Assembly: GCA_018062765.1 (NCBI GenBank)
Contig: JAGORR010000001.1
Location: 356,930-420,929 of the forward strand
DNA length: 64,000 bases
Source of the DNA: Minisyncoccota bacterium
Lineage (GTDB): Bacteria; Patescibacteriota; Minisyncoccia; Phycocordibacterales; Phycocordibacteraceae
Direction of reading: 5' to 3'
The notes under the pieces were generated by a model. The model was not told where the DNA came from, searched no databases, and saw nothing but the letters and a program-made list of their open reading frames with translations. Below are positions 1,889-62,441 of this stretch, in pieces (position 1 is the stretch's first letter; each line of letters begins with the position of its first letter). A program made the position numbers and the translations under genes.

Positions 1889-4360
1889 ATGGCAAAAGCT
1901 AAGGAGCCTGAAGCAGGAGGGGAAGCCGCGCCGGTACAGCGCGTCATACAGCAGTCGATTACGGGCGAGATGCGCACGTCGTATCTCGACTACGCGATGT
2001 CCGTCATTACCTCGCGCGCCCTGCCTGATGTGCGTGATGGCCTCAAGCCGGTGCATCGCCGCATCCTCTTTACGATGCGCGAAGCAGGCCTCACGCCGTC
2101 CGCAAAGTTCCGTAAGTCAGCGACGGTGGTCGGAGACGTGCTCGGTAAGTATCACCCTCATGGCGACGTCGCCGTCTACGACTCCATGGCTAAGATGGCG
2201 CAGGATTTCTCATACCGGTATCCGCTTGTCATGGGTCAGGGAAACTTCGGATCCATCGATGGCGATTCTCCTGCTGCCTACCGTTATACGGAGGCGAAGA
2301 TGTCGCGCCTTTCCGACGAGCTTCTCGCAGACCTCGAGAAGGACACGGTGACCTGGGGCGCCAACTACGACAACACCCGACAGGAACCGAAGGTGCTTCC
2401 GGCGGCGCTCCCGAATCTTCTTTTGAACGGAACGTTGGGCATCGCTGTTGGTATGGCGACCAACATCCCGCCGCATAACCTGAAGGAGGTGGTAGATGCG
2501 ACCGTGCACCTTATCGATGAGCCGGAGGCGACAACCGATGACCTCCTGGGAATCGTGAAGGGTCCTGACTTCCCTTTGGGCGGCATCGCATTCAATCAGG
2601 CAGACATCAAGCACGCGTACGCTAACGGCAAGGGCGGCGTTGTCGTGCGCGGCGAGGCAGAGATTGTCGAGGACAAGAAGGGAAGCCACATCGTGATCAC
2701 TTCTATTCCGTATCGCGTTAACAAGGCAGAACTCATCACGCGCATCGCGGAGTTGGTGCAGGAGAAGAAGCTCGAGGGCGTCCGCGACCTTCGCGATGAG
2801 TCAGCGGCAGACATTCGCGTCGTTGTCGAGCTTAAGGGCACTGCACACCCGCAGGCGGTATTAAACGCTCTCTATAAGCACACGGAATTGGAGTCCACCT
2901 TCCACTACAACATGCTGGCGCTCGTCGACGGTGTGCCGCAGACGCTGTCCTTGAAGGGTATGCTCGAGCACTTCATCGAGCACCGCAGGGAGGTGGTGAA
3001 GCGTCGCACGGAGTACGACCTCCGGAAGGCCGAGGAGCGCGAGCATATCCTCTTGGGACTCTCGAAAGCGCTCGATCATATCGACGAGGTCATCGCCATA
3101 ATCAAGAAATCAGCGGACGTTGCTGCGGCTTCCTTGGCGCTCCAGAAGAAGTTCGCGTTCTCGCAGATACAGGCGGCAGCGATTCTCGAGATGCGCCTTT
3201 CGAAGCTTGCAGGCCTCGAGCGCAAGAAGATTGAGGATGAGCTTGCGGAGGTCCAGGCGCTCATCAAGAAGCTCAAAGAGATTCTCTCCTCCGCGAAGAA
3301 GATTCTCGCGGTGGTGAAGGCCGAGCTCGTCGCTATCGGCGAGAAGTACGGAGATGATCGCCGTACGAAGATCGTGAAGGGCGGAGTGAAGAACATCTCG
3401 GTCGAGGACATGGTTCCCGACGAGGAGAGCGTCTTGGTCATCACCGCAGGCGGCTATGTGAAGCGCACTAACCCATCAGAGTACAAGGCGCAGAAGCGCG
3501 GTGGCGTTGGTGTTATCGATATGTCTACCAAAGAAGAGGATGTGGTGACCCACTTCCTTTCTACTTCGGCGCACTCCGACCTTCTCTTCTTCACGAATCT
3601 CGGCAAGGCGTACCAGACCAAGATGTACGACATCCCAGAAGGAAGGCGCGCAACGAAGGGGAAGTCCATCATGAACTTCCTGCCTTTTGCAGCCGAGGAG
3701 AAGGCGACATCAGTGCTTGCGGTTCCAAAGGGCGCCGAGCGGGATGCCTTGTCTGTGTTCTTCGTGACCGAGCAGGGCGTCGTGAAGAAAGTTGCTGCCA
3801 AGTCATTCGCTGACGTGCGCAAGTCCGGCATCATCGCGATAAACCTCAAGGGCGGAGATAAGCTCGTCTCCGCGCACTTGGCCTCCGAGGGGGATACCAT
3901 TTCCATAGTGACCGCGAAGGGGCAATCGATACGGTTTGCGGCAGACGACGTGCGCGAGATGGGGCGCACGGCGGCGGGTGTGCGCGGCATGTCTGTGAAG
4001 AAGGGAGACTCGGTAGTTTCCGCAGAAGTCATTCCAGCTGCGGACGAGAAGCACGCAGCGCTCCTCGTCGTCATGGCCAAAGGGTATGGCAAACACACAT
4101 CTATCGATGAGTACAAAATTCAGGGACGCGGTGGATCGGGTATTAAGACCGCAGAGGTGACCGGCAAGACTGGTGAGATTATCGGCGCGAAGGTTCTCAC
4201 GGGTGAATTTAAGGAGGATGAAATCGTCGTCATCTCGAAGAAAGGCCAGGTCATCCGCACGAAGGTGGGGGAGATTTCGAGCCTTGGACGCGCGACGCAG
4301 GGGGTACGCATTATGAAGTTGCGAGAGGGAGATGCCATCGCCTCCATGGTGGCGTTGTAA
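1889..4360 (+). CDS. gyrA: DNA gyrase subunit A
   Basis: 823 aa. Hallmarks are [41 protein letters not shown] (catalytic Tyr region) and C-terminal beta-pinwheel repeats. Confidence 0.97.
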
Positions 4361-5935: not shown

Positions 5936-5986
5936 GCGCCTAGTTTAGCAAATCGCTATTCCTCGACCTCCTTGCTCTCTCCTAGT

Positions 5987-6026
5987 TTGCTCCATCTCGG
6001 TGCCTATAGGCACCGAGATGGAGCAA
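5987..6026. repeat. perfect 40-nt palindrome, copy 1 (TTGCTCCATCTCGGTGCCTA|TAGGCACCGAGATGGAGCAA)
   Basis: Read directly. A second copy at 62402-62441 differs only by a compensatory T..A to C..G pair. Confidence 0.9.
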
Positions 6027-6175
6027 AGAAGTTCACGGCATATCACGTTGTTACATGTACTAGCTCGCGTTTGCGCGCAAAAGCTCGCGCGCACCCAATA
6101 GTACTCACATCCTGTTCCTACTCTCCCCAAAAACCGACGACCCAAGGCAGATGCGTGCTATTTTTATACATATAT

Positions 6176-6712: not shown

Positions 6713-8007
6713 TGCCGAACCTGAACATTCGTCCGTTCCAACTCATCGTGATCTCCGTCTTCGGAGTACTGGCGCTCGTAGGTGTGTTCGTGTTCGCCAC
6801 CTACGAGCGCAACGCAACAGGAAGCACGAGTGCGGGCAAAGTAGTTATCTGGGGCATTATCCCCGAGCGCGAGATGCAGGGGGCGATGGAGGAGCTGACG
6901 CGAAACAGCGACTATCGCAACGTGTCGTATCTGTACGTGCGGCCCGAAGCATTCGCTTCAGAGCTTGCGAACGCGCTTGCTGAGGGTAATGGCCCCGATC
7001 TGGTACTTATCTCCCAAGAGGAGCTCGCAAGCCAAGAGTCGAAGCTCTCGCTCATCTCTTTCAAGTCCGTTCCGGAAAGGACGTATCGTGATATGTACGC
7101 CACCATATTCGAGATATTCCTTACGAATGAGGGCACATACGGATTCCCGCTCGCGCTCGACCCTATGGTCATGTATTACAATCGACAAACGCTCGCGAAC
7201 GCAGGCATCGCGACGCCGCCCACAACCTGGGCCGGGATACGCGGTCTCGTGGACACGCTTACGAGCCGGCAAGGGGATACTGTCGCGAAGTCGGCAATAC
7301 CCTTCGGGAGCTACGGGAACGTGGATAATGCGCGCGGAATTATCTCGACCCTGTTCTTGCAGGCAGGCTCGCGTCTCTCCGAGCGAGGCACGAGCGGCAT
7401 ACGCGCCACATTCACTAGCGACGCGGGTGGAGGAAGCCCGGTCCAATCCGCTCTTCTCTTTTATGCAGAGTTCGCTGACCCGGTGAAGCCGTTTTATACT
7501 TGGAACAGCGCGCGCGAATCGTCCCGACAAGCGTTTCTTTCTGGAACCTTGGCGTTCTACCCGGGCTACGCGTCGGAGGCGCGTTCCCTAGCCGCAGCAA
7601 ACCCTAATCTCGACTTTGATATGGCGCGCATGCCGCAGCCGGAGGCAGGCGGCACTAAGGCGGTGTACGCGAAAGCATACGCGCTCGCGATAACCAAGGT
7701 ATCGCGCAATTACCACGGGGCATTCTCTGCAGCGCTCGGGCTTACGGAGGCCCGCATAATGTCGCTTGCTGCGCAGAGTGCCGGTCTAGCACCTGCCATG
7801 CGCACCCTGATAGCGAAGCCGCCCGCGGACCTCTACTCACCGGTCTTCTATCCGGATGCGCTCATTGCGCGCGGTTGGCTCTCCCCAGCGCCCTCCGTCA
7901 CGGACGGCATCTTCGCTGGTATGATGCAGAACGTGACTTCAGGACGCTTTACTATCGCGCAAGCAATCAAGTATGCGTCAGATTCCATCGACGCGTCGTT
8001 AAGGTAA
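6709..8007 (+). CDS. membrane-anchored extracellular solute-binding protein (ABC-type, sugar-like family)
   Basis: 432 aa. ATGA overlap with the upstream stop. N-terminal TM anchor. Size and pattern fit periplasmic binding protein family 1. No permease or ATPase gene is adjacent. Confidence 0.6.
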   Translation: MMPNLNIRPFQLIVISVFGVLALVGVFVFATYERNATGSTSAGKVVIWGIIPEREMQGAMEELTRNSDYRNVSYLYVRPEAFASELANALAEGNGPDLVLISQEELASQESKLSLISFKSVPERTYRDMYATIFEIFLTNEGTYGFPLALDPMVMYYNRQTLANAGIATPPTTWAGIRGLVDTLTSRQGDTVAKSAIPFGSYGNVDNARGIISTLFLQAGSRLSERGTSGIRATFTSDAGGGSPVQSALLFYAEFADPVKPFYTWNSARESSRQAFLSGTLAFYPGYASEARSLAAANPNLDFDMARMPQPEAGGTKAVYAKAYALAITKVSRNYHGAFSAALGLTEARIMSLAAQSAGLAPAMRTLIAKPPADLYSPVFYPDALIARGWLSPAPSVTDGIFAGMMQNVTSGRFTIAQAIKYASDSIDASLR

Positions 8008-11927: not shown

Positions 11928-11974
11928 GCGTCAAATCAAGAAAAGAGCTCATAGGTACGGGCTCGTTTGTCGAT

Positions 11975-12128
11975 TGCTGGGGGAGGGCTTGGTCAGGCGC
12001 TCATTCGTCGCCGTCGCTCCTCACTCCGCCTGACCACCCTCGCGTGACAGACTTTGCTAAGTCTGTAGACCGCGCTCGGTTTCAAGTCTCCACCCCATGC
12101 CATTGCGGCTGCTTGCGCAGCCTTTATG
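11975..12128 (-). repeat. tRNA-trailer structured element, copy A (distal to tRNA-Leu-TAG)
   Basis: In tRNA orientation the order is:
- hairpin GGCTGC-gcaa-GCAGCC
- GGAGACTTGAA, antisense to the tRNA T-arm
- ACAGACTT-AGCA-AAGTCTGT
- GGTCAGGCG..(GAGTGAGG..GACG loop)..CGCCTGACC
- CAAGCCCTCCCCCAGCA, mimicking the tRNA 3' end. Confidence 0.8.
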
Positions 12129-12282
12129 TGCTGGGGAGGGCTTGGCGAAGCGTCTGCCGATCGTCGTCACTCCCGGCTCCGCTCGGCCCTGCTCGCACGA
12201 CACGGCGTGCTCGCCGCGTAGACCGTGCTTGCGTTCAAGTCTCCACCCATGCCTCTGCGCCAGGCTTGTGTCTGGTTACGTG
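12129..12282 (-). repeat. tRNA-trailer structured element, copy B (adjacent to tRNA-Leu-TAG)
   Basis: Also 154 nt. In tRNA orientation the order is:
- GCCT-ggcgcag-AGGC
- GGAGACTTGAAC
- ACGCGGCG-AGCA-CGCCGTGT
- GCCG-gGAGTGACGACGat-CGGC
- CCAAGCCCTCCCCAGCA. Confidence 0.8.
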
Positions 12283-12416: not shown

Positions 12417-12489
12417 CTCAGTTGGTAGAGCAGATCCCTCTTAAGGATAAGGTCCCTGGTTCGAGCCCAGGTAGGCGCACTAACACGAA
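12417..12489 (+). tRNA. tRNA-Lys (anticodon CTT)
   Basis: Hand-folded. Acceptor GCGCCTA/TAGGCGC. Anticodon loop CTCTTAA. T arm CCTGG-TTCGAGC-CCAGG. Confidence 0.9.
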
Positions 12490-12639
12490 AAAGTCCTGGT
12501 CTGCACCAGGACTTTTCGGTTAGTGCGCGACGGAACCATGTTTTGCGAGCGCGCAAAACCGGTGAGCCAGGGTCGTAGCCTGAAGTGAGTGTCGACGAGC
12601 TTCAGGGCTATGACCACGTGCGAGGCACAGCGATGTTTT
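12490..12639 (+). repeat. tRNA-trailer structured element after tRNA-Lys
   Basis: Order:
- terminator-like H1 AAAAGTCCTGGT-ctgc-ACCAGGACTTTT
- TGCGCgaCGGAACCA (antisense-like to the tRNA 3' end)
- GTTTTGCG-AGCG-CGCAAAAC
- GGTCGTAGCCTGAAG-tgAGTGTCGACGag-CTTCAGGGCTATGACC
- ..GAGGCACA (compare tRNA end TAGGCGCA). Confidence 0.65.
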
Positions 12640-12725
12640 GTCTGCAGATAAAACCACGAGCCGGGATAGCGGAATTTCATGAATAATGACTAATGAAATA
12701 TCCGTGACCACAAATTGCAAAACGT

Positions 12726-13625: not shown

Positions 13626-13708
13626 GCCAGGGTGATGGAACGGTAGACATAGGGGACTTAAAATCCCCAGCTGTAACAAGCGTGTGGGTTCGACTCCCAC
13701 CCCTGGTA
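13626..13708 (+). tRNA. tRNA-Leu (anticodon TAA)
   Basis: Hand-folded. Acceptor GCCAGGG/CCCTGGT. Anticodon arm GGGGA-cTTAAaa-TCCCC. Long variable arm. T arm GTGGG-TTCGACT-CCCAC. Confidence 0.9.
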
Positions 13709-13738
13709 CTCGGTAGGGCGTGATAGGATTCTGCCATC

Positions 13739-13810
13739 GGCCCGATGGTGAAGTGGTAACACGGGGGACTGCAAATCCTCTATGCGCGGGTTCAATTCCC
13801 GCTCGGGCCT
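13739..13810 (+). tRNA. tRNA-Cys (anticodon GCA)
   Basis: Hand-folded. Acceptor GGCCCGA/TCGGGCC. Anticodon loop CTGCAAA. T arm GCGGG-TTCAATT-CCCGC. Confidence 0.9.
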
Positions 13811-13950
13811 CAAATTGGACGCGCAGCGTCTAATAGCGGGAATTGAAGGCCGTAGCTATATCGTGCGAGCACGCACGATTGCGAGGCGGGGTCACGAATA
13901 AGGTCTGCTCGACGGAGCAGACCTTATTCGTGACCAGTACCGCTCTGTCT
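13811..13950 (+). repeat. tRNA-trailer structured element after tRNA-Cys
   Basis: Order:
- GACG-cgcag-CGTC
- AGCGGGAATTGAA, an exact antisense of the tRNA-Cys segment TTCAATTCCCGCT
- ATCGTGCG-AGCA-CGCACGAT
- 20-bp hairpin GTCACGAATAAGGTCTGCTC-GACG-GAGCAGACCTTATTCGTGAC
- CAGTACCGCTCTGTCT (compare tRNA CAATTCCCGCTCGGGCCT). Confidence 0.75.
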
Positions 13951-14303
13951 TAAATTTGGTTCCCTAACTCATCCATTCGCTGACGGTTCTTCTCCCCAGC
14001 ATCGTGCTCAAACTTTACAGACGGAATGGCGCGCAGACGGGACTTCTGCTTGAGGAAGGTCCGGAATTCATCGCGGTTGCGATTTAAGAAATCTAGCGCG
14101 TAGGGAAGGGCGGTGTCAGGGAACACGGTGACGAACAAGGTGGCGCGGTCACCTCTTGAGGAGAGTACTGCGCGTGTCACCGTTATAAGCGATGTGTTAT
14201 TCGATTCGCGCGCAATAAACTCAGCCGCTAGATGCGCTACCTGCTCCTCGGCGCGCTCGCCGTGATGATTTGCCTTGCCGCCCCCGGTAAATGGAAGGCT
14301 CAT
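13950..14303 (-). CDS. rbfA: ribosome-binding factor A
   Basis: 117 aa. RbfA-like core (AEFIARESNNTSLITVTRAVLSSRGDRATLFVTVFPD). Overlaps the infB stop by 4 nt, matching the conserved infB-rbfA order. Confidence 0.85.
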   Translation of the reverse strand: MSLPFTGGGKANHHGERAEEQVAHLAAEFIARESNNTSLITVTRAVLSSRGDRATLFVTVFPDTALPYALDFLNRNRDEFRTFLKQKSRLRAIPSVKFEHDAGEKNRQRMDELGNQI

Positions 14304-22138: not shown

Positions 22139-22239
22139 TGCGGCTCCCAGGTGGTCACAAATACTTCCGCGTCGACACTTGGAAGTTTCGCGACCCCGCC
22201 AAAAAGGAAAAACCTGGAGCAGTCCAGGTTTTTCCTTTT
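22139..22239 (-). repeat. tRNA-trailer structured element after tRNA-Trp (short form, no AGCA hairpin)
   Basis: In tRNA orientation the order is:
- GGAAAAACCTGGA-ctgc-TCCAGGTTTTTCC then TTTTT
- TGGCGGGG (antisense to tRNA end GCCCGCCA)
- GGTC..CTTCC-aAGTGTCGACGc-GGAAG..GACC
- ACCTGGGAGCCGCA (compare tRNA CTACTGGGCCCGCCA). Confidence 0.65.
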
Positions 22240-22313
22240 TGGCGGGCCCAGTAGGAATCGGACCTACGCTAACGGTTTTGGAGACCGTTGTACTACCACT
22301 ATACGATGGACCC
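22240..22313 (-). tRNA. tRNA-Trp (anticodon CCA), CCA end encoded
   Basis: Hand-folded. Acceptor GGGTCCA/TGGGCCC. Anticodon arm ACGGT-cTCCAaa-ACCGT. T arm GTAGG-TCCGATT-CCTAC. Confidence 0.88.
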
Positions 22314-28196: not shown

Positions 28197-28362
28197 CAAA
28201 GCGCGAAGCGCGCATGGTCGGGGAGTACCCTGCCTGCGCAGGGTACGTGAGAGACTTGAACGCCGGAGCGATGATTCGTCAGCAGACGAATCCGCGAGGC
28301 AAGGCTATGAAAATTCTCGAGTGACGGCGAGAGAATTATTCCTGGCCAAGCCTTCCCCGGCA
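28197..28362 (+). repeat. tRNA-trailer structured element, copy 1 after tRNA-Leu-CAA
   Basis: Order:
- TACCCTG-cctgcg-CAGGGTA
- GAGAGACTTGAAC, a 13-nt exact antisense of the tRNA T-arm
- GATTCGTC-AGCA-GACGAATC
- AATTCTC-gAGTGACGGCg-GAGAATT
- CCAAGCCTTCCCCGGCA (mimic). Confidence 0.8.
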
Positions 28363-28509
28363 CATGAAGCACGCGCAGCGTGCGAAGGGCTCGTGGGTGG
28401 GACTTGAACGCCGGAGCGATGCTTCATCAGCAGATGAAGCCGTGAGCTGGGGTCGCGGAAAATGCCATGTGACGACATGGCATTTATTCGCGACCAAGCC
28501 ACCCCGGCA
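28363..28509 (+). repeat. tRNA-trailer structured element, copy 2 after tRNA-Leu-CAA
   Basis: Order:
- GCACG-cgcag-CGTGC
- GGGTGGGACTTGAAC
- GCTTCATC-AGCA-GATGAAGC
- GGTCGCG..AAATGCCATGT-GACG-ACATGGCATTT..CGCGACC
- AAGCCACCCCGGCA. Confidence 0.8.
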
Positions 28510-28555
28510 CGTGACAAATATGTTGCGCGCATAAGCGCATGCTAAAATCCTTCAC

Positions 28556-39443: not shown

Positions 39444-39538
39444 CCAACTTGAGCGAGGTTCTTGCGTCCGAGACGCATTGAACTAAGCCAAGACTCCATT
39501 CAGAAAAGGCATACCGGCTGAGAGTCGCATTCAGAACG

Positions 39539-39562
39539 AAAAACCGCCCTAGGGCGGTTTTT
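39539..39562 (+). terminator. intrinsic terminator
   Basis: AAAAACCGCCC-tag-GGCGGTTTTT. Confidence 0.75.
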
Positions 39563-39585
39563 CGTTTGCGCGTTATAATTGGATT

Positions 39586-62401: not shown

Positions 62402-62441
62402 TTGCTCCATCCCGGTGCCTATAGGCACCGGGATGGAGCAA
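62402..62441. repeat. perfect 40-nt palindrome, copy 2 (TTGCTCCATCCCGGTGCCTA|TAGGCACCGGGATGGAGCAA)
   Basis: Read directly. It differs from copy 1 (5987-6026) only at the symmetric positions T/A to C/G. Confidence 0.9.

Follow-up and report, generated by a model that had tools for sequence, protein, structure and literature searches.

Integrative elements that use tyrosine integrases are recognized by repeats of a tRNA or tmRNA gene's 3′ end that begin in the T-loop, by tandem accretion, and by a restored gene end. Tandem islands have been described at ssrA (PMC3146451), and the Patescibacteria are known to be intron-rich, with group I introns in anticodon loops (PMC13011429). The locus considered here lies in a 64,000-nt stretch of the Minisyncoccota bacterium contig JAGORR010000001.1 (hereafter the window), in which tRNA-Cys(gca) is followed by a trailer of hairpins and tRNA-derived blocks. 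We put the chance that this trailer is an old copy of a gene-less hairpin-cassette family at about even. With the same middling confidence, we view the family as modular cassettes of ~120–150 nt, free of open reading frames (ORFs), that insert site-specifically into the 3′ ends of conserved genes, probably by way of a folded single strand. Insertion with duplication, a fixed junction geometry, tandem arrays, decay, and turnover are all observed directly, and the main insertion site is the T-loop of tRNA genes.

Parts and fold of the tRNA-Cys trailer

The locus, in window coordinates, is made up as follows:

13626–13709, + strand: tRNA-Leu(taa) (ARAGORN), 29 nt before tRNA-Cys
13739–13811, + strand: tRNA-Cys(gca), the target gene (ARAGORN; Rfam tRNA, 66.6 bits)
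13791–13811, + strand: 3′ part of tRNA-Cys from the T-loop on, the proximal, functional copy of the duplicated segment
13791–13803, + strand: T-loop and 3′ T-stem strand, TTCAATTCCCGCT, partner of the antisense block
13814–13834, + strand: hairpin H1, AUUGGACGC-GCA-GCGUCUAAU (predicted fold, comparison with the related species L053)
13835–13847, + strand: antisense block, AGCGGGAATTGAA, exact reverse complement of 13791–13803 (shuffle test)
13849–13887, + strand: H2 domain, outer pairs GCC/GGC and an inner 8-bp stem with AGCA loop (fold, alignment)
13860–13879, + strand: H2 inner stem-loop, ATCGTGCG-AGCA-CGCACGAT
13890–13935, + strand: H3, a perfect 21-bp hairpin with GACG loop (hairpin search, fold)
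13935–13950, + strand: decayed distal copy of the tRNA-Cys 3′ end, CAGTACCGCTCTGTCT (in the tRNA, CAATTCCCGCTCGGGCCT) (sequence comparison, equivalent in L129)
13950–14303, − strand: rbfA (Pfam RBFA), convergent with the unit, a neighbour outside the element

Every trailer block listed by an earlier note, which had been drawn up from the sequence alone, was found where that note had placed it. The exact 13-nt reverse complement of the tRNA-Cys segment is far above chance: AGCGGGAATTGAA and TTCAATTCCCGCT are the only two matches at one mismatch or fewer in the 64 kb, against a mean of 0.05 matches in shuffled sequence, and none of 100 shuffles reached two or more. An origin of the trailer as a partial tRNA duplicate is ruled out, as its T-loop part is a true reverse complement and not sense sequence. 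The H3 hairpin and its GACG loop are likewise as first described, except that the stem measures 21 bp and not 20. H3 had also been said to abut the rbfA stop codon and perhaps to double as the rbfA terminator, and neither proposal held: H3 ends 14 nt ahead of the stop codon, lacks a T-run on either strand, and in relatives rbfA lies on the other side of tRNA-Cys. It is the last base of CAGTACCGCTCTGTCT (13950) that coincides with the first base of the stop codon, and a terminator search at H1–H3 on both strands returned no site combining a hairpin with a T-run.

The H1 core is GACG-cgcag-CGTC, and the predicted fold lengthens its stem to ATTGGACGC/GCGTCTAAT (13814–13834). The L053 sequence is the same at 20 of the 21 nt, the sole change being a C in L053 that is a T in the window, where G·U thereby replaces a G-C pair in the sense strand. 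The Cys unit has a predicted folding energy of −78.1 kcal/mol (z = −9.2 relative to shuffled sequence), and in predicted folds the antisense block and the distal copy close a junction around H2 and H3. A near-isoenergetic alternative pairs the tRNA-Cys T-arm with the antisense block. The distal copy retains short runs in common with the tRNA 3′ end (the longest being CCGCTC), and its CCGCT (13940–13944) could still pair with AGCGG of the antisense block; an intact 21-nt counterpart is present in L129. Kissing between the H1 and H2 loops was considered and dropped, since H1 loops read CTGCG or its complement, CGCAG. Six contigs of the window strain are identical over the Cys locus (four across 361 nt, two across ~180 nt). 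At the Rfam gathering threshold only tRNAs match in the window, and a permissive scan of 13780–13960 yielded only hairpin look-alikes below threshold.

Insertion with duplication of the target's 3′ end

For comparison beyond the window, a pattern composed of the H2 loop, the linker, and H3 was scanned over contigs of species-representative genomes, giving at least 118 matching stretches, and a covariance model (R1), built from six units of the window, identified 137 units within the 118 matches listed. A metagenome scan with the tRNA-Cys 3′ end of the window provided 33 contigs with an identical end.

Two syntenic contigs (rbfA, tRNA-Cys, tRNA-Leu(taa); 82% identity over 916 nt) present the same site empty (L128) and filled (L129). 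The difference between them is a single 141-nt insertion in L129, consisting of a 120-nt unit and a 21-nt repeat, CAATTCCCGCTCGGGCCTCAA, that begins at C56 of the T-loop, and the sequence found directly past the tRNA in L128 comes after the distal copy in L129. A second comparison comes from the window's own tRNA-Leu(tag) units, whose final distal copy is followed by ATCGACAAACGAGCCCG..., the same flank as that of the unit-less tRNA-Leu(tag) of L125 (where an 11-nt spacer, CTAACTGGACT, absent from the window, precedes it). Because of these two comparisons, the terminal "mimic" of the earlier note is a duplication of the target's 3′ end produced by insertion: it is tRNA-derived, as that note had it, but has not evolved as a mimic, and it subsequently decays as a fossil. 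Exact copies of the tRNA from T-loop to end that reach at least 13 nt stand after H3 in 22 of 59 units (up to 25 nt), compared with 2 of 3332 cross-pairings with other tRNAs.

The junctions follow a fixed geometry, which we measured in 27 fresh units, where the longest repeat reached 28 nt. In 17 of them the first base of the repeat is C56, located 19 nt before the tRNA end; in 20 the repeat stops at that end (0 to +2), and in 19 the last base of H3 is also part of the repeat. The antisense block adjoins H2 on its 5′ side, and its complementarity to the target straddles the insertion point; it stops 1 nt before H2 in 18 of the 27 and pairs T54 and T55 (2 nt upstream of the repeat) in 15; across units this guide is 10–20 nt long. 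Longer forms add a second block, antisense to the acceptor 3′ strand and located before H1, and are predicted to fold like a minihelix of acceptor and T-arm with H2 and H3 as its cap.

The tRNA-derived parts match the adjacent tRNA specifically, and the spread of one fixed repeat cannot account for them. In comparisons with tRNAs of the same anticodon from other species whose 3′ region differs, the resident tRNA is the better fit for the antisense block in 121 cases, an equal fit in 30, and a worse one in 17 (the contrast is larger against tRNAs of other isotypes); for the distal copy the corresponding counts are 100, 41, and 27. The proposed co-variation of trailer blocks with the tRNA is thus borne out overall, with exceptions in L026 and L129, whose antisense blocks fit the tRNA-Cys of another lineage: the L026 block keeps an A where the resident tRNA has G, and the L129 block is a perfect match to the L127-type tRNA-Cys with two mismatches to the resident one. 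Within units, the block fits the proximal copy better than the distal copy in 46 of 48, with ties in 2, and in units with decayed distal copies its complementarity averages 11.5 to the proximal and 5.5 to the distal copy (20 of 20). The window's own mimic is weak, which by itself would suit the view that both blocks are chance resemblances in a generic repeat; the exact 13-nt block, the tuning to the tRNA, repeats of up to 28 nt, and the empty and filled pair refute that view, and we give it next to no weight.

Across 204 tRNAs, distal copies lie mostly 116–190 nt downstream. No kilobase-scale insert is marked by them in this set, and two repeats at ~3.5 kb are the 3′ end and the unit repeat of a second tRNA-Ala gene. 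These distances bear on whether the units are ordinary attL–attR scars, akin to the remnants known as cis-mobilizable elements (CIMEs), of large integrase islands or prophages, with the hairpins as parts of attP arms. The units do display the tyrosine-integrase signs given at the outset. Against this, the insert size is tight and lacks any kilobase-scale relative among the 204 tRNAs; one scaffold serves nearly all isotypes as well as protein genes within single genomes; no integrase lies nearby and no viral copy was found; the stems covary on one strand; and double-stranded attP sites have no inverted core copy at a distance of 90 nt. We consider an origin as island remnants very improbable.

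The Cys insertion is present in the window and in L053 and absent in L125, L126, and L127. Decay of its distal copy is largely common to the window and L053 (CCAGTACCGCTC and CCAATACCGCTC, respectively), so the insertion is older than their split. In L126 a NUDIX gene begins 2 nt past tRNA-Cys, and in L127 42 nt separate tRNA-Cys from tRNA-Leu. L125 has, instead of a unit, an HNH-type gene directly past tRNA-Cys (2960–3480), and we note in passing that a free-standing HNH-type endonuclease-like gene also occupies the position directly 3′ of tRNA-Cys in L135, L145, L153, and L158. Most of the 33 metagenome contigs are empty at this site, and many tRNA-Leu(caa) genes are likewise without a unit. 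Tandem arrays, partial units, and strings of fossil copies are observed as well.

Earlier or foreign acceptor stems survive as fossils in the distal copies. At L030 (tRNA-Cys at 7357–7429, − strand), the acceptor strand reads CTCGGGCC in both distal copies and CCCTGGCC in the resident tRNA; in L106, a close relative with a near-identical H2–H3 core, the distal copy matches the resident tRNA. Distal copies never gain CCA where the gene does not encode it, which favours a DNA-level over a mature-RNA origin of the copy. An origin from a primer-binding site or mature tRNA is ruled out: the antisense blocks leave CCA uncovered, units of the short-repeat form pair with trailer bases, and the distal copies have no CCA.

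The surroundings of the Cys unit have been rearranged. In relatives (L053, L125–L128), rbfA, tRNA-Cys, tRNA-Leu(taa), and an aminotransferase gene are co-directional, and the window has the two tRNA genes inverted and in the opposite order (Leu, then Cys). With rbfA upstream and co-directional in the relatives, the convergent rbfA arrangement of the window represents a local rearrangement. Separately, the orientation of the Lys/Leu(tag) pair differs between the window and L053, and rearrangement breakpoints coincide with unit-bearing tRNAs. That the internal tRNA-Leu(taa) carries no unit, as had been noted, is correct for the window with its 29-nt gap and does not extend to a rule, since L053 has a unit between co-oriented tRNAs.

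Sibling units, targets, and the H2–H3 scaffold

The architecture had been said to be common to Leu trailers. We confirmed it twice behind Leu(caa) and twice behind Leu(tag), and also behind Lys and Trp. The window has eight tRNA genes, and among the seven with a 3′ flank inside the 64 kb, five bear units, for a total of seven clear copies. In addition to the Cys unit, these are the following, listed together with one weak further unit behind Lys:

28222–28515, + strand: two tandem units behind tRNA-Leu(caa) (R1, E = 7e-37 and 9e-30)
11970–12272, − strand: two tandem units behind tRNA-Leu(tag) (R1; L125 comparison)
12489–12631, + strand: unit behind tRNA-Lys(ctt), short-repeat form, its hairpin taking in the last tRNA bases (R1)
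12632–12710, + strand: weak degenerate second Lys unit (R1)
22152–22243, − strand: unit behind tRNA-Trp, a 24-bp hairpin including the tRNA 3′ end, then H3, without H2 (R1, E = 2e-6)

Each Leu(caa) unit comprises an antisense block of Leu type, H2, H3, and a distal copy that has decayed, and the short-repeat form (Lys, Trp) follows the same plan with its junction a few bases from the tRNA end. Run over the window with filters off, R1 returned its six training units, the Trp unit (which was outside the training set), and the weak second Lys unit, all behind tRNAs, and no unit elsewhere in the 64 kb. An alignment of the six training units has compensatory changes in 25 of 32 predicted pairs. As a side observation, the tRNA-Gln trailer (39447–39570) lacks H2–H3; ahead of an ordinary terminator it has a GAGCGAGG motif, a small hairpin, and jumbled fragments of the tRNA 3′ end, and it may be a degenerate minimal unit. 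Two further hairpins of the window, at 5986–6027 and 62402–62441, are near-identical 18–19-bp stems with a TATA loop (TTTGCTCCATCTCGGTGCC-TATA-GGCACCGAGATGGAGCAAA and its copy) that differ by one compensatory change, T-A to C-G, and are unrelated to the tRNA units.

The pattern matches listed come nearly all from metagenome-assembled genomes (MAGs) of the Patescibacteria, or candidate phyla radiation (CPR), and include Paceibacterota as well as Kaiser-, Adler-, Nomura-, Wolfe-, Giovannoni-, and Zambryskii-bacteria. Typical units matched by R1, with perfect 18–21-nt repeats, also occur on the Elusimicrobia-labelled contigs L061 and L063, so that either the family reaches beyond CPR or these are mis-binned MAG contigs. 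The Nakamurella-labelled matches, L017 and L076, have no R1 match and were taken as chance. Directly 3′ of a same-strand tRNA lie 84 of the 137 units, and 11 more are second units of arrays. Eighteen isotypes appear as terminal genes in the listed loci, all of them bearing units except Phe (0 of 4). Units are always oriented like the target gene and are located at transcription-unit ends; typical intrinsic terminators often sit between gene and scaffold.

The targets are not confined to tRNAs. Besides tmRNA (recognized by ARAGORN, Rfam, or eye), they include the 3′ ends of topA (12 loci), rpsI, and rplL, and one further unit sits in a 16S–tRNA-Ile spacer. One scaffold is common to nearly all tRNA isotypes and to protein genes inside single genomes. 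The proposal that each unit is tuned to its own tRNA stands as far as tuning goes, and fails as a description of a tRNA-only device. At L068 (765–872), between the 16S rRNA and the hairpin unit, we noticed an Rfam match to a group II intron D1–D4 fragment (36.4 bits, threshold 35); a study of introns in Patescibacteria reports none of group II (PMC13011429).

Not every cassette has the common core. Variants keep the 3′ copy, antisense blocks, H1, and distal copy and carry a different core (for example CCTTGCG...CGCAAGG TGTAC...) or merely a small hairpin. They are found at the following positions:

L026, 1581–1760
L100, 871–1070
L123, 1392–1900
L125, 4440–4660, − strand
L028, 7380–7572, − strand: an 88-nt unit downstream of tRNA-Pro(tgg) at 7573–7644

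Since R1 misses these variants, the family is larger than counted. A further observation concerns many long-form units of various isotypes and species, in which a motif GARCRNAGYGAR (e.g., GAACGAAGTGAG) stands 3–8 nt past the tRNA end; motifs of this type were seen in trailers of L013, L022, L026, L027, L028, L029, L048, L050, L086, and L123, and they resemble the GGAGCGATG strand of H2.

Covariation in the H2–H3 scaffold is extensive. Over 92 units, 93.8% of cells are paired, compared with 70.6% in shuffled sequence and at most 42.5% with slid partners, and 31 of 32 scaffold pairs show compensatory change. In most family members the base of H3 is GGUC/GACC followed by a G·U pair, and one G·U near the H3 base is conserved in 127 of 137 units. 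Elsewhere in the scaffold G·T/T·G pairs outnumber A·C/C·A pairs by 122 to 26 (4.7 to 1), and tandem G·A pairs lie beneath the GACG loop. This G·U bias on the sense strand leads us to conclude that the functional form is single-stranded and has the sense polarity of the gene, whether as RNA or as single-stranded DNA (ssDNA). The Cys trailers of the window and L053 are identical at 35 of 37 nt up to H2, with the RbfA attributed to L053 83% identical; H2 carries three compensatory double changes between them, and the H3 stem is mostly different.

The same features could belong to a host-functional trailer RNA that acts in cis, in which the block pairs its own T-arm or 3′ end and H1–H3 form a processing, termination, or stability module. 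Such a module might be an RNase III-type stem or an exonuclease block, with the duplication a by-product of the module's origin. We regard this account as unlikely, though as the main rival. It would explain the sense-strand-specific structure, with its excess of G·U over A·C and its G·A pairs beneath the loop, the orientation of units with the gene at transcription-unit ends, and the better fit of the block to the proximal copy, which outlasts decay of the distal one. The near-identity of the window and L053 trailers up to H2 despite the lower RbfA identity, and the near-isoenergetic fold that pairs T-arm and block, point the same way. However, many orthologous tRNAs are without a unit and the next gene may start 1–3 nt past the tRNA, so the unit is unnecessary for tRNA maturation; intrinsic terminators often precede the scaffold; and a processing role leaves the 60–70-nt duplications of topA coding sequence, the tandem arrays, and the fossil copies unexplained. 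A trailer RNA and an origin by insertion are compatible and do not exclude one another.

The protein-gene targets show how much sequence may be duplicated. Units at topA 3′ ends occur at L018, L024, L031, L037, L040, L049, L069, L079, L089, L093, L101, and L113. In eleven Zn-ribbon topA genes the unit comes after ...MMEGTKTIPERCS...stop and is followed by a second copy, KTIPERCS...stop (11 of 11), intact in 8 and decayed in 3; the insertion is also present in L024, which was looked at on its own. About 70 nt of the topA coding 3′ end are carried or duplicated by the cassette, whose antisense block, GGTTTTTGTC, is complementary to the junction sequence GACA|AAAAC (in rpsI, the block is antisense to the last 12 nt of the gene). 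Proximal and distal topA copies differ at 8–14 of 19 codons, the differences over seven species amounting to 67 synonymous and 15 non-synonymous changes with both copies in frame. L037 and L024 have an HNPHK-type proximal copy, as other species do, and an HRPDK-type distal copy; this pattern in the sequences suggests that a topA cassette may be able to bring a foreign replacement end. Near-synonymous divergence is unexpected for a discarded copy, and it reflects either fast turnover with foreign ends or use of both copies. A template/variable repeat pair of a diversity-generating retroelement, in which changes would be confined to adenines of one copy and a reverse transcriptase would lie nearby, was ruled out for topA, where changes of every kind occur and most are synonymous.

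A mobile element acting at the RNA level, whether like an intron or a retroelement, and spread through RNA and reverse transcription, would fit the in-frame topA copies with their 67 synonymous and 15 non-synonymous differences. In one version the block would be an internal guide that aligns the end of the 5′ exon with the start of the 3′ exon, in the order of group I P1/P10; in another, the block and distal copy would correspond to the a2/a1 repeats of a retron around an msr-like H2 and an msd-like H3. The guide does span the junction (anti-3′-side, then anti-5′-side), the scaffold motifs are RNA-like, and the intron richness of Patescibacteria (PMC13011429) lends some plausibility. On the other side, the gene is uninterrupted and distal copies are decayed in many tRNA units, which means that splicing is not required. 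There is also no Rfam intron or ribozyme match, distal copies without CCA where the gene lacks it were not copied from mature tRNA, no reverse transcriptase gene lies near units, and H2–H3 can be replaced by other modules. An element of this sort is improbable in our view.

Proposed mechanism and comparison with known systems

The layout left by an insertion begins with an intact 3′ gene end and a spacer, which is short or is a terminator hairpin; then come H1, the antisense block, H2–H3, the displaced 3′-end copy, and the native flank. In the cassette model we favour, the active form would be one folded strand, most likely of DNA, comparable to integron attC or CTX phage attP. The antisense block would render the target sequence double-stranded beside the H2–H3 scaffold, and a recombinase or nuclease encoded elsewhere would exchange one strand with the matching gene. 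Such an exchange would require sequence identity with the target, and each unit would for this reason be tuned to its gene. The inserted cassette would then supply the gene's 3′ flank, leaving the distal copy dispensable and liable to decay, as in the Cys unit.

Several observations weigh against this model. Units are placed on both strands of a window whose GC skew rises monotonically, without the replication-strand bias of IS200/IS605-type elements. Old units have a decaying distal copy but retain H1, the antisense block, and the structure of H2 and H3, a persistence that suggests function in place, possibly at the RNA level. The block also pairs 2–3 bases upstream of the repeat, which would be absent from any free element; target recognition or in-place pairing thus fits better than a self-contained folded site. 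Modules other than H2–H3 can fill the cargo place with the rest of the plan kept. Among the 118 loci, ORF clustering revealed no recurrent recombinase, transposase, or reverse transcriptase near units (the recurrent neighbours are syntenic housekeeping genes only: topA, parB, relA/spoT-like, IF2), the scaffold pattern had no match in viral contigs, and no free or circular form or within-population polymorphism was seen.

A bolder form of the cassette model, which we advance only tentatively and think rather unlikely, is a guide-directed insertion cassette free of protein genes, in which the 10–20-nt block and the two-hairpin scaffold direct a trans-encoded enzyme to cut and join at a fixed distance in any matching sequence, be it tRNA T-loop C56, tmRNA, topA, or rpsI. 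Dozens of specificities would then coexist in one tiny genome, and the cassettes would form a new class of guide-directed mobile element with an ssDNA or RNA guide.

If the cassette model is right, streamlined CPR genomes of ~1 Mb host many copies of a gene-less mobile element that would choose its target through a short complementary block and keep the gene it hits working by means of a duplicated or supplied 3′ end. We know of no class that combines complementary-block targeting with 3′-end supply. The cassettes would point to a trans-acting enzyme with guide-like, reprogrammable site choice, and they may help account for rearrangements around tRNA genes in CPR genomes. Distal copies would serve as dated fossils of past tRNA acceptor stems, and annotators should be aware that "tRNA fragments" and duplicated topA ends in CPR genomes may be insertion scars.

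Among described systems, integron attC and CTX attP sites would share with the cassettes a site that is set by structure and not by sequence and is formed on one strand. In both, an internal inverse copy pairs the cassette boundary (here the antisense block, the structured middle, and the start of the next copy), variable stems go together with conserved unpaired or wobble features, and cassettes have a single orientation and stack in arrays; a single-strand exchange resolved by replication would be a further likeness. The fold topology and sense-strand bias resemble attC, with the strand being either DNA or RNA. Unlike integron cassettes, those described here have no intI/attI platform and no GTTRRRY/RYYYAAC core, and their boundary sequences are target-specific. 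Their "core" is 10–20 nt and differs with each target gene, their cargo is the target's own 3′ end plus hairpins, and their targets are tRNA T-loops and gene 3′ ends.

Integrative elements of tRNA and tmRNA genes, and CIMEs, likewise insert at the T-loop or the extreme 3′ end (both classic sublocations), restore the 3′ end, and leave a direct repeat on the far side with the native flank after it; tandem accretion and fossil repeats are also common to both. The cassettes differ in measuring 120–150 nt rather than kilobases, in using one scaffold for dozens of att sequences, in having no integrase of their own (no ORF fits 120–150 nt, and no recombinase recurs near the 118 loci), and in adding a target-antisense block and covarying single-strand hairpins.

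Insertion sequences of the IS200/IS605 family, with the palindrome-associated transposable elements and repetitive extragenic palindromic (REP) sequences, are also hairpin-based and strand-specific with ORF-less derivatives, and there too a short guide just 5′ of the hairpin foot pairs the target or cleavage site. Their guides are 4–5 nt, no target is duplicated, and the replication-strand bias is strong, whereas the cassettes have a guide of 10–20 nt, a repeat of ~5 to at least 70 nt, and units on both strands of the window.

Guide-bearing mobile RNAs (group I and II introns, IS110 bridge RNA) place a target-complementary block across the insertion point beside a structured core, and here too target choice follows the block. 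In contrast to the introns, the cassettes leave the tRNA contiguous and match no ribozyme core or intron model; the Patescibacteria introns (PMC13011429), being group I and in anticodon loops, are different and were rejected as a precedent. In contrast to IS110, the cassettes have no adjacent recombinase gene and no internal-loop guides. Retron noncoding RNAs are similar in topology, but the cassettes occur in many copies per genome with no adjacent reverse transcriptase gene. REP sequences and bacterial interspersed mosaic elements are mosaics of hairpins and conserved linkers at transcription-unit 3′ ends, with many copies tolerated in compact genomes; REPs, however, show no tuning to the gene upstream and leave its end unduplicated. 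MITEs, the miniature transposable elements with terminal inverted repeats and a fixed-length target duplication, differ in that the cassette ends are not mutual inverted repeats, and the cassette repeat, from ~5 to ~70 nt, is set by the distance to the gene end.

Full-text searches of the literature turned up no description of such a cassette, and it is apparently undescribed so far. The features that define MITEs, IS200/IS605 derivatives, introns, and retrons are missing from the element, as are the core and platform of integron attC, and it shares with integrase elements only their att-duplication.

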